Under the pieces are notes generated by a model. The model worked only from the letters and a program-made list of their open reading frames with translations. It was not told where the DNA came from and did not search any database. Of a stretch of DNA of 64,000 bases, positions 6,949-10,433 are shown in pieces. A program made the position numbers and the translations under genes. Every line of letters starts with the position of its first letter. The first letter of the stretch is position 1. The DNA comes from an uncultured Veillonellaceae bacterium. GTDB lineage: Bacteria > Bacillota > Negativicutes > JARBTT01. The stretch spans positions 96,001 through 160,000 of the forward strand of contig CAWDTA010000003.1 of the NCBI GenBank assembly GCA_963805085.1, written 5' to 3'.

Positions 6949-8367
6949 TTACCAATAACCGAGAACTTTCCACCATACACCACCGACACCGACCCAGATA
7001 ATGATGTGCATGATTGAGACACCAAAACCAATTTTCCACCAATCTGCTTGCGTAACATAACCAGAACCAAAATAAACTGGAGCTGGGCCTGTACCAAAAT
7101 GCGTTAAACAACCGCAGATATTAGAAGCAAGTGCTACAACAAAAGCGGAAATAAATGGTGGAGCACCTGAAGCTACGCCTAAGGTGATTAGAGCAGCATA
7201 CATTGCCGTTACGTGAGCTGACATACTAGCAAAGAAGTAATGACTATACAAGTAAATTACGAAGGATAATACTACCGCGGTAAGCATGCCTACACCAACC
7301 ATTTGGTTTTCTAATATCTTAGCAAACCAACCGATAAAACCAGTTTTATTGAGGTAATCAGACATTAAGATAACACTACCAACCCAAATTAAAGTATCCC
7401 AGGCTCTCGTTTCTTTTATTACATCTTTCCAAGTTAAAACTTTAGTCGCGAGTAAGATACATAATCCCAGAAAGGCAATTAAAGTGCCGTCTAGCTTCGT
7501 CATCGAAGCTGTAGCCCAAAGTATTAATAGCATAATAAATACAAAGAACATAATTTTTTCATTCTTGGACATTGGTCCCATTTCTTTTAAGACATTAGCG
7601 GCCATTGTTTTTGCTTCAGGCGTGTTTTTGATTTCAGGAGGATAAAATTTGTAAATTGCGTAAGGAATACCAATTAACGCAACAGTACCAGGAACCACAG
7701 CAGCGATAAACCAACCCATCCAAGTGATATCCACATCTAAAACTTTTTTCGCCATTGCAGCAGCAATTGGATTACCAACCATTGCTGTCATAAACATTGC
7801 AGATACAACGAGGTCAATATGAAAGACCGAAGTTACTAGAAAAGCACCGATTTTTCTAGCAGATTCACCTGGTTTTGAATCAAAGGCTTCAGCTAAACTT
7901 TGTACAATTGGGAAAACAAGACCACCAGCCCGCGCTGAGTTAGATGGAATTGCAGGCCCGATAATTAAATCACTTAAAGCTAAAGAATATACAAGTTTCA
8001 GACTGCTATCACCAAAGGATCGCATTGCCATGTAAGCGATCCTTCTGCCTAGACCAGTAATGATAAAGGCTCTAGCTAAAATGAAGGCGGAAACGATCAA
8101 CCATACAGTACCGCCACTGAAAGCGGTTAATACTTCACTGAATTTTAACGTATAAGTTAATGAACATGTGACAATTGCAATTAAAGCTACGGAACCAGCT
8201 TCTATTGGTTGTAAGATAAAACCAACTACTGTACCCATAAAGATTGCGAATAAGTGCCAAGCTTGAGGTTTTAACCCTTCTGGCACTGGGTAAAACCATA
8301 AAATAAGTACAATTCCGACTGTTAATATGGCAGCAGGTATTTTGCTTTCGCCAAAAAGTTTTTTCAT
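6949..8367 (-). CDS. DASS family anion (di/tricarboxylate) permease, CitT/TtdT/YflS-like
   Basis: PSNSARAGG, SAMFMTAMVGNP and THFGTGPAPVYFGSGYV motifs. Start at ATG 8367 after AGGAG. Confidence 0.92.
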   Translation of the reverse strand: MKKLFGESKIPAAILTVGIVLILWFYPVPEGLKPQAWHLFAIFMGTVVGFILQPIEAGSVALIAIVTCSLTYTLKFSEVLTAFSGGTVWLIVSAFILARAFIITGLGRRIAYMAMRSFGDSSLKLVYSLALSDLIIGPAIPSNSARAGGLVFPIVQSLAEAFDSKPGESARKIGAFLVTSVFHIDLVVSAMFMTAMVGNPIAAAMAKKVLDVDITWMGWFIAAVVPGTVALIGIPYAIYKFYPPEIKNTPEAKTMAANVLKEMGPMSKNEKIMFFVFIMLLILWATASMTKLDGTLIAFLGLCILLATKVLTWKDVIKETRAWDTLIWVGSVILMSDYLNKTGFIGWFAKILENQMVGVGMLTAVVLSFVIYLYSHYFFASMSAHVTAMYAALITLGVASGAPPFISAFVVALASNICGCLTHFGTGPAPVYFGSGYVTQADWWKIGFGVSIMHIIIWVGVGGVWWKVLGYW

Positions 8368-8386
8368 ATGCACTACTCCTCGTATA

Positions 8387-8430
8387 ATAAGTTTTGTAAA
8401 CAATAATCCGCCATTGTTTACAAAACTTAT
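8387..8430 (+). repeat. perfect 18-bp inverted repeat at the start of the IS110 left end (5' hairpin of the predicted ncRNA)
   Basis: ataagttttgtaaacaat-aatccgcc-attgtttacaaaacttat. Confidence 0.9.
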
Positions 8431-8675
8431 TTTTTATTTTTTAATGCTTAAAGGAATCCCTTGATGCTAAAATATTTCTAAGAGATTTTAGCAAAGGTAA
8501 CGTCTTATCCTCCTTGCGAAACCTTTTGGTTATTGCTTTTAAAGCTTGACGCCTGCCTTATTCATCAAATACCGCTTACACAGATGTTGCGTCTCTTGGC
8601 GAAAGCTTTCCAGCAAATTTACTTTCACAGATGAATGCTTATTATGCGAGGCTGCGGTCAGTGAATAAGATCAGG
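8394..8675 (+). ncRNA. predicted IS110 bridge RNA (5' hairpin, target-binding loop about 8496-8557, donor-binding loop about 8557-8669); ends approximate
   Basis: Downstream of the circle-junction promoter. Stems: cgtc/gacg, aacc/ggtt, cttattca/tgaataag, accgc/gcggt. 8638-8650 is complementary to donor 8379-8391 at 12/13 positions. Confidence 0.75.
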
Positions 8676-8727
8676 GTATTCCTTTTCTATCTTTCTTATT
8701 CTCAGCCAGAAAGGTGGTGACATTTCT

Positions 8728-10008
8728 ATGAAGAAGGCGGATCTTCTTTCTACTTTGTTTGTGGGAATTGACATAAGTTCCCGCGAAAATGTCGTTTGCG
8801 CTATTGATTTTGAAGAGCAAAAACTGTTGCGATTTACTGTGCCCAATAATCAACCAGGTGCAGTTGAAATGGCTAAAAAGTTTCATGATTTTTTTTCTGA
8901 AAATCATGATCTTAATAAGCTGGTTGTTGCCTTAGAATCTACATCTTTCTATGGTATTCACATAGCTAACTACTTATCTTCCTGTGAATTATTGATGCCA
9001 TTTGACACTCATGTTTACTGTATAAATCCCAAGATGGTTGCCAATTACAAAAAGTCTTATATCGGTCTAGGCAAAACTGATGCAATTGATTCTTTTATTA
9101 TCGCTGATTTTGCTAGAGTTGGCAGAATTACCTCTGCTCCTTGGCGCGGCAGTCAATTTTTAGCTTTGCAGCGTCTAACTCGCCATCGATTACATATAGC
9201 TCGTTCTCTTACTCGTGAGAAAACCTATATGCTTTCAAACATCTTTCTTAAATTTAGTGAGTTTTCTATTCTCGACGATGATAAGCAGCCCTTTTCTAAT
9301 AACTATGGCGCTGCCGCTTCTTCGGTTTTAACTGATTTTCTTTCTACCGAAGATATCGCTAACATGCCGATGGCAGCACTAATTGAACACATTTGTAAAA
9401 AAGGCAAAAATCGTTTTGCAAATCCTGAACACACAGCTTCTTTACTACAGCAAGCCGCTCGCAATTCCTACCGATTGGATAAATGTTTATACGAGCCTTT
9501 AACTATCTCTATCGCCTCATCATTTAACCTTATTTCAGCCTATGAATCTGAAATGAAGGCTATCAATAAGGCTATTGAGAAAACGCTTCGGGGACTTGAT
9601 CCTAACGCTTACCAAAGCCTTTTATCCATTCCTGGAATTGGTCCGGTTTATGCTGCTGGCATTATTGCTGAGATTGGTTCTATTGAGGCCTTTAAGTCTC
9701 AGGAAGCTCTTGCTAAATATGCTGGTCTTGTCTGGCGTGAAAACCAATCTGGCAATTTCAGAGCCGATGATACCATCCTTTCAAAAGCTGGCAATACTTA
9801 TCTCAGATACTATTTAATTGAAGCTGCAAGCCATGTAAAGAATCATTTAGCTGAATATGCAGCTTTTTACCAGAAAAAGTATGATGAAGTTAAAACTCAT
9901 CAGCACAAACGCGCACTCGCACTTACTGCTCGTAAATTCATCCGGCTGATTTTTGGATTGCTGGCCAACCATCAGCTTTACTCTCCAAGTAGAGTAAGCC
10001 AAATTTAA
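8728..10008 (+). CDS. IS110 family transposase/recombinase
   Basis: GIDIS, ALEST and KTDAID (DEDD RuvC-like); SIPGIG and QSG catalytic Ser domain; GNTYLR. Confidence 0.96.
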   Translation: MKKADLLSTLFVGIDISSRENVVCAIDFEEQKLLRFTVPNNQPGAVEMAKKFHDFFSENHDLNKLVVALESTSFYGIHIANYLSSCELLMPFDTHVYCINPKMVANYKKSYIGLGKTDAIDSFIIADFARVGRITSAPWRGSQFLALQRLTRHRLHIARSLTREKTYMLSNIFLKFSEFSILDDDKQPFSNNYGAAASSVLTDFLSTEDIANMPMAALIEHICKKGKNRFANPEHTASLLQQAARNSYRLDKCLYEPLTISIASSFNLISAYESEMKAINKAIEKTLRGLDPNAYQSLLSIPGIGPVYAAGIIAEIGSIEAFKSQEALAKYAGLVWRENQSGNFRADDTILSKAGNTYLRYYLIEAASHVKNHLAEYAAFYQKKYDEVKTHQHKRALALTARKFIRLIFGLLANHQLYSPSRVSQI

Positions 10009-10433
10009 TAGTTCCATTATTTTACTTTTTCTTTGTTTTGAAGAAGAAGCTTGTTTAGTGCACCCATTTTTTACGGATTGCTTACAAAATTTATTTTTTA
10101 TGGGCTTGACATATTACCAGATTGCTTGTTATAAATTTTAAAAAATTTATGAAAATACATTGATAAATTTTATTAATTAAATCATATAAAAATAAACAAG
10201 CAATGTAAAATCTAAAAAAATTATTGTTGATTATCATATAATTGAATGATTATTTAGATAATTTCTAAATTTAACAGTTTTTTATTTATATAATTCGTAT
10301 AAAATGAAAATTGCTAAACAGCAAAAAGTGAGTACTTGAAATAAAAAAGATATTTAAAATATGCTAAATATTTTAAATATCTTTAATAAAATTGTTTTGG
10401 CGATGGATGTTTTAATGATCATTATAATGCTAA

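Follow-up and report, generated by a model that had tools for sequence, protein, structure and literature searches.

A probable donor-binding loop in the left end of an IS110-family element, and the limits of its right donor guide

Positions 8557-8669 of the window, by which we mean the entire stretch of 64,000 nucleotides analysed here, very probably form the donor-binding loop (DBL) of an IS110 bridge RNA. The loop would read both sides of the joined ends of its element, while the long extension of its right guide would be an accessory contact at most. A first-pass annotation had likewise taken this region for a donor-binding loop whose 3' strand pairs with the CT core and the right donor (RD), and that identification is supported by the comparison with relatives. 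The explanation draws on the ends of the element, on the stems of the loop, on covariation of the left guide with the left donor and of the target loop with the target, and on the invariance of the right core. Coordinates of the features are collected in Table 1.

Table 1. Features of the element and of its putative bridge RNA (positions of the window).
Feature	Position	Strand	Remarks
CT core dinucleotide, left copy	8379-8380		target-derived at left junction
Right donor (RD), first bases of left end	8381-8391	+	same start in four copies; includes TATAAT 8383-8388
Left-end hairpin and T-run (predicted)	8386-8442	+	19 bp, 8386-8404 with 8413-8431; terminator scan and folds
Target-binding loop (TBL), putative	8500-8552	+	stem 8501-8504 with 8548-8551; inner stem-loop 8516-8536
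Left target guide AUCCUCCU	8507-8514	+	TBL 5' strand; matches left flanks of own copies
Right target guide AAAG	8541-8544	+	in TBL
Handshake C	8545	+	in TBL
Donor-binding loop (DBL), probable	8557-8669	+	covariation in 66 distinct homologs
Left donor guide, covarying block CAGAU	8581-8585	+	inside 5' loop strand 8576-8588
Right donor guide	8639-8650	+	core GCGAG 8646-8650 with CTCGT 8379-8383; extension 8639-8645 with 8384-8390
Handshake guide G	8651	+	directly 3' of right donor guide
IS110-family RNA-guided recombinase, 426 aa	8728-10008	+	NF033542, PF01548, PF02371, IS621 match
Right-end tip	10106-10126	+	-35 TTGACA 10106-10111, left donor 10114-10124, right CT core 10125-10126; common to three full copies

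Judged by its sequence, the region 8381-10126 is an IS110-family element of 1746 bp. These limits follow from four copies in the same genome and from an empty site in a genome of the same genus. Three of the copies are full length with 100% identity and one is a cut-off copy of 99% identity (L004), which lacks a right end, so that four left but only three right junctions are available. The flanks of the copies diverge exactly at …ctcCT/CGTATAATAAG on the left and at …CCAGATTGCT/t… on the right (slashes mark the point of divergence), and CT is the sole sequence common to both junctions. The uninterrupted locus of the same-genus genome (G001) has one CT only. The neighbours of the element are a LysR-type regulator gene and the ribosome-binding site of an opposite-strand gene of the Na/sulfate-symporter family. 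Wherever a left end was found in a homolog, it starts with CGTAT(A/T/G)(A/T)T, and the right ends of homologs carry TTGAC(A/T), 13 nt and then CT.

Two related sequences were also noted. In the isolate run X1, a relative of 93% identity is represented by a 1721-nt contig (8406-10126) ending exactly at 10126; relative to the flank bin its word depth is about 60-fold, which suggests many copies, although depth does not equal copy number. A miniature relative of about 250 bp (L005; G000:C2, about 1165299-1165550, minus strand) has a left end that comprises the hairpin, a stem-loop and a target-binding loop with a different left guide and is fused directly to a right-end tip with the -35 box; it possesses neither donor loop nor recombinase gene. 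A truncated second left end lies about 1 kb from it. The miniature and the full element have the same donor arms, so that mobilisation of the former in trans is conceivable.

The recombinase gene sits just 3' of the donor loop. Its product matches the NCBIfam model NF033542 ("IS110 family RNA-guided transposase") with 229.5 bits (cut-off 140), contains the Pfam domains PF01548 and PF02371, and resembles IS621 chain 8wt6_A (E 4e-9), the similarity being detected mainly in the C-terminal domain. Residues E70, D118/D121 and S341 align with E60, D102/D105 and S241 of IS621 as numbered by Hiraizumi et al. 2024 (PMC11208158), and D15, E70, D118, D121 and S341 are invariant in nine relatives.

Relatives were collected by scans of genome contigs, which gave 38 loci, and of metagenome contigs, from which the best 80 of 330 loci were taken. 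A locus was kept if it had an N-terminal protein match and no less than 150 nt of upstream sequence; once identical loop sequences had been collapsed, 75 distinct loops were left. Nine of these were dropped, namely seven distant ones of 37-47% protein identity (L025-L028, L030 and L036 of group B, plus L035) and two with a cut or misaligned loop (L064 and L116). The remaining 66 distinct loops form the alignment A3; some 60 relatives derive from gut, sediment and wastewater assemblies.

Three stems make up the loop. An outer stem (cttattca 8557-8564 with tgaataag 8662-8669) and a closing stem (accgc 8571-8575 with gcggt 8654-8658) enclose a large internal loop, from which an inner stem (8589-8599 with 8626-8638) is set off. 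The letters and coordinates that the first-pass annotation had given for the two enclosing stems are exact, and both stems covary in the 66 distinct loops. RNAalifold recovered the two together with the inner stem and left both loop strands open. Double changes occur at all eight pairs of the outer stem (87.8% of cells paired), at four of the five pairs of the closing stem (82.1%) and at eight of the 11 pairs of the inner stem (86.4%), i.e., at 20 of 24 pairs with 85.9% of cells paired in all three. The covariation score of the DBL is 0.597 compared to 0.226 in shuffles, none of 500 of which was as high, and to a maximum of 0.140 with slid partners. The outermost pairs are poorly kept, with C8557:G8669 paired in 32 and A8571:U8658 in 21 of the 66 loops. 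Support for the stems comes from this covariation, because the fold energy of the DBL alone is not unusual (-25.2 kcal/mol, z -1.07, 28 of 200 shuffles as good); the left end as a whole is unusually stable (z -3.37, none of 100 shuffles as good). Rfam covariance models, searched over 8000-10400 with E up to 10, yielded four weak matches at chance level, all far below gathering. The two loops of the RNA likewise resemble each other at their ends, as had been noted before: both start with UUA (8505 and 8576) and finish with AG plus three nucleotides (AAAG-CUU 8541-8547, CGAG-GCU 8647-8653).

Two additional helices were observed in the alignment and in the folds. UUGC 8587-8590 can pair with GCAA 8613-8616, is 97.3% paired over the 66 homologs, contains one covarying pair (U:A 33, C:G 29) and crosses the inner stem; it may be a pseudoknot or an alternative state, or may reflect one event in a single clade. 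The other, a long-range helix, is predicted between about 8450-8467 and 8670-8690; it would close the entire two-loop domain and shows, by eye, matching changes on both sides in homologs. In the portions of the literature examined, such a closing helix is not described for the IS621 RNA.

The 5' strand of the internal loop carries the link to the left donor. Its block CAGAU is identical to CAGAT at 10118-10122 in the right end of the element. In 58 of the 66 loops a right end could be identified, and in 56 of these 58 distinct homologs the RNA block equals the donor DNA, the two exceptions being off by one base. The block occurs in five forms (CAAAT in 31, CAGAT in 15, CAGAA in five, CAGGT in four and CAAGT in one), and none of 10000 permutations matched RNA and donor as well. 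Group B maintains the relation between left guide and donor with a different block, ACCGCUG. The first-pass annotation had described the resemblance to the left donor as only loose; in register, CAGAU itself is exact and covaries. The UUAC upstream of CAGAU is donor-like without covariation and is probably a loop-start motif common to the target loop. A left guide running contiguously up to the core C was not found, as CAGAU is followed by GUUGC in the RNA and by TGCT in the donor. Either two RNA bases would bulge and UGC would pair with TG and the core C, or one donor base would be skipped and GUU would pair with G, C (as U:G) and T. Inspected by eye, both registers, RNA bulge and DNA skip, have exceptions in the table of homologs.

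On the 3' strand, cttattatgcgag (8638-8650) and ctcgtataataag (8379-8391) are reverse complements of each other, with G8646 opposite T8383 as the sole deviation. The count of the first-pass annotation, complementarity at 12 of 13 positions with one G:T, is exact (12 Watson-Crick pairs and one G:T). Within the 64-kb window, a search for the complement with at most one mismatch returned only the donor itself and 8638-8650, while shuffles gave a mean of 0.08 chance matches to a 13-mer and one of 100 reached two. The first of these nucleotides, C8638, forms the closing pair of the inner stem with G8589 (G:C in 62 of 66 homologs); it most likely belongs to that stem, and therefore the free guide would comprise 8639-8650. 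Within the core, every one of the 32 distinct guide/donor pairs shows Watson-Crick pairing at positions 8-11 and G:T at position 12; in the more distant group B, position 12 is A:T in contrast to the G:T of group A. As GCGAG and CTCGT do not vary, the core is supported by conservation and not by covariation. IS621 has the same non-canonical pair, G161:dT12 (PMC11208158). Because of this parallel and of its invariance in the 32 pairs, we interpret G8646:T8383 as a conserved feature and not as a blemish.

The extension beyond the core gives a different picture. Its eight positions are fully paired in three of the 62 loci with a known left end, five pairs being the most frequent state (33 loci), and the mean number of pairs is 7.75 at a protein identity of at least 84% (n=4), 5.59 at 66-83% (n=17) and 5.15 below 66% (n=41). 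At donor positions 13-20, 170 of 256 cells are Watson-Crick in cognate pairs against 171.7 in permuted ones, with 7948 of 10000 permutations at least as good. Where the donor departs from consensus, at 32 positions, the RNA partner is mismatched in 25 cases, G:U in five and Watson-Crick in two; in both of the latter the RNA base is the one that the clade also carries opposite the unchanged donor, so that a compensating RNA change was found at none of the 32. Covariation of 8638-8650 with the donor in homologs had been named in the first-pass annotation as a point on which its proposal depended, and in the extension this covariation is lacking. As far as the aligned loci go, the RNA does not follow the donor where the latter varies. 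This comparison is of limited power because the donor side of the extension is the -10 hexamer, which hardly varies. Across the family the in-register complementarity at positions 13-20 is 0.69 versus 0.18-0.46 in slid registers, and pairing beyond position 12 may therefore matter. Taken together, the alignments indicate that the extension is not maintained by selection as a guide and would be at most an accessory contact, not the main determinant of specificity.

These data weigh on the first reading of the loop, according to which the 13-nt right guide would be the main donor determinant and the left guide vestigial, and the ribonucleoprotein would shut off the junction promoter via its -10 box. 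The complementarity over 13 nt, which is far beyond chance, the complete coverage of TATAAT by the resulting duplex and the in-register excess at positions 13-20 all suit this reading. Nevertheless we regard it as improbable, given that the left block covaries with its donor in nearly all homologs, that the extension does not covary and is mostly mismatched where the donor has changed, and that it is complete in very few loci and shrinks with decreasing protein identity. In particular, the proposed bias of donor recognition towards the right is contradicted by the contrast between the covarying left block and the right extension.

It is possible, if rather doubtful, that 8639-8645 do not pair with DNA at all and are kept for RNA structure or protein contacts, the complementarity being incidental to an RNA motif rich in A/U that lies opposite an A/T-rich -10 box. 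Opposite donor positions 14, 16, 17, 19 and 20 the RNA hardly varies, while opposite 13, 15 and 18 it changes freely, a pattern that would not give a stable helix in most homologs, and the donor would be fixed by other constraints, namely its roles as promoter hexamer and as 5' arm of the left-end hairpin. Set against this are an in-register complementarity about twice that of slid registers, the perfect extension in the clade of the window, and the case of IS621, in which pairing likewise continues past position 12, at 13-14, once two bases have been flipped out (PMC11208158). The accessory contact is our preferred reading of the extension.

The donor side of the extension overlaps a promoter that would be formed on the excised circle, where TTGACA and TATAAT come to stand 17 nt apart; at the sequence level the same geometry is found in homologs. 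Promoters rebuilt across the core are established for IS110 elements, and in this family the junction promoter intrinsically overlaps the donor site (Durrant et al. 2024, PMC11208160). The first-pass annotation had placed the right guide over the -10 box of the junction promoter, and TATAAT indeed lies inside the paired stretch. In the element and its closest relatives the right guide can run seven to eight more pairs over the whole -10 hexamer, and complete coverage by a contiguous duplex is, in our alignment, particular to the clade of the window. For the suggestion that the complex represses its own promoter, we found no statement in the portions of the literature examined, including those of PMC13626964.

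With a 5' arm that originates within the -10 box and the RD, the left-end hairpin resembles a terminator acting on incoming transcription. It is kept with compensating changes in homologs; of 61 distinct homologs, 42 have at least five of the six donor positions 15-20 paired in the predicted hairpin, and 46 have a T-rich tail after it. According to the folds, the full stem would be present in transcripts that enter from the flank, whereas a start about 7 nt after TATAAT would leave 9 bp, separated from the T-run. At the 32 changed RD positions the hairpin has 10 Watson-Crick pairs, three G:U, 19 unpaired positions and no mismatch, and so tracks the changes better than the right guide does; this claim is limited by the whole variant RDs, over which the right guide pairs 4.09 of the six positions 15-20 and the predicted hairpin 2.82. 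A built-in terminator would be of interest because a terminator upstream of the IS621 left end abolished excision (PMC13626964). Pairing of RD and right guide within a read-through RNA, as a kind of "anti-guide", was considered and rejected, the minimum-energy fold of 8372-8700 preferring the local 19-bp hairpin.

In the integrated copy, flank and element together form a promoter-like site at 8361-8388 (TTTTCA, 16 nt, TATAAT; 10 of 12 matches). As the -10 box lies at the very tip of the element, a fair -35 in the flank could drive the bridge RNA without excision. In RNA runs, at most 0.17 of the sampled words were found in any run, and a single metatranscriptome contig, 151 nt long and from a relative of 93% identity, spans 8455-8601. 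The contigs carry no information on start, end or strand, and we do not take them as evidence of expression.

The first of the two loops, the TBL, shows a corresponding relation to the target. Over 70 distinct homolog pairs, its 5' strand matches the left target with a mean suffix of 5.23 compared to 4.21 in permuted pairs (none of 2000 as high). The base that directly follows the right donor guide, G8651, can pair with C at target position -1, where 67 of 71 homolog targets have C, but cannot pair with the G present at donor position -1 in all 58 cases; C8545 of the TBL is, by eye, the converse and faces donor G and target C. That handshake bases pair with the non-cognate DNA is the rule for IS621 (PMC11208158). 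In IS621 the target loop comes first and the donor loop second, the 5' strands pair with the bottom strand and the 3' strands with the top strand, core included (PMC11208160), and both the order of the loops and the strand rule are the same here.

The insertion site of the family, …CTC-CT, is the antisense of an AGGAG ribosome-binding site; at target positions -3, -2 and -1 the bases C, T and C are found in 63, 58 and 67 of 71 loci, respectively. In the left flanks of the own genome an opposite-strand start codon lies 7-12 nt from the core, in the present case that of the Na/sulfate-symporter-family gene. An inserted element parts the ribosome-binding site of a gene from its upstream sequence. 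A limited search of the literature gave nothing on insertion of IS110 bridge-RNA elements at ribosome-binding sites. Upstream of both loops, the 13 nt at 8443-8455 agree without mismatch, by eye, with the reverse complement of 13 nt across the insertion point of copy L003 (two left-target bases, the core and nine right-target bases). This stretch partly overlaps the predicted long-range closing helix, and its complementarity may be due to chance or to an extra target contact.

The region lies directly upstream of the recombinase gene and a predicted long-range helix closes the entire domain, both of which would be expected of a structured 5' leader that controls translation of the recombinase mRNA and is no guide RNA. 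Such a leader, however, does not predict covariation with DNA outside the RNA, which we observe twice, once for the left donor at the far end of the element and once for flanking DNA, the left target, and the enzyme belongs to an RNA-guided family. We consider a mere leader extremely improbable.

Interpreted as a donor-binding loop, the region can be placed in a scheme for which we infer the transcription start, the ends of the RNA and the binding of the protein. By analogy with IS621, the ends of the excised element would join as …CCAGATTG-CT-CGTATAATAAG…, and this junction would rebuild the TTGACA-17-TATAAT promoter from which the bridge RNA would be transcribed. A recombinase dimer would hold the donor loop, which would read the junction from both sides, with G8651 as the handshake base for the incoming target strand, while the first loop would read a target that is the antisense of a ribosome-binding site. 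There is a small chance that the system limits itself further: the growth of the right guide to 12-13 contiguous nucleotides in this clade would put the complex on the whole -10 hexamer, and together with a terminator dependent on the start of transcription the two would form a joint circuit. If this were true, the hairpin would stop read-through from the flank, while transcripts from the junction promoter, lacking the 5' arm, would read on; guide RNA and enzyme would then be made essentially only from the excised circle and be shut off by their own product.

The element is another case of an already known system of RNA-guided recombination and leaves the known mechanism unchanged. It shares with IS621 a bridge RNA encoded in the left end, ahead of the gene for a DEDD/Ser IS110 recombinase (PMC11208160, PMC11208158), the donor loop as the second of two internal loops, the CT core and the promoter rebuilt across the core on the circle (PMC11208160), as well as the G:T at donor position 12 and the handshake base directly 3' of the right guide (PMC11208158). 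The two RNAs differ in size, the RNA domain measuring about 275-295 nt from its inferred start here and 177 nt in IS621, and the present one has an extra stem-loop, the long-range closing helix and an inner domain of about 50 nt, as far as the IS621 descriptions consulted allow comparison. The left guide is discontiguous here, with a covarying block of 5 nt located 3 nt from the core, whereas that of IS621 is contiguous over 8 nt up to the core C (PMC11208158); conversely, the right guide is discontiguous in IS621 but contiguous over 12-13 nt in the clade of the window. The recombinase is longer, with 426 aa instead of 326-328 aa. Elements of the IS1111 group carry their RNA downstream of the transposase gene, and the RNA described here, which is located upstream as in the IS110 group, differs from the IS1111-group seekRNA in this regard. 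The seekRNAs of IS1111/IS110 elements (Siddiquee et al. 2024, PMC11187229) are likewise target-selecting RNAs from the non-coding region of elements with a DEDD transposase. A two-loop bridge RNA with left and right guides for target (LTG/RTG) and donor (LDG/RDG) is likewise present in IS622 (bioRxiv 10.1101/2025.05.14.653916), CazIS110-1 (bioRxiv 10.1101/2025.10.25.684509) and ISCro4 (PDB 9t56), and the model for IS622 involves a 14-nt recognition of donor and target (bioRxiv 10.1101/2025.05.14.653916). In the parts of these sources consulted we found no description, for any of the three, of a right guide over the full -10 box, a discontiguous left guide or a target at a ribosome-binding site.

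The comparison adds a well-documented natural bridge-RNA system from an anaerobic genome of the Firmicute type. Its relatives reveal which positions of the donor loop are held by evolution, namely a short covarying left block and a right core of five bases with a conserved G:T. The long complementarity, striking in one element but not maintained among relatives, calls for caution with guide lengths read from single sequences. The discontiguous left guide, the long contiguous right guide and the ribosome-binding-site target likewise represent natural variation for the engineering of such systems.
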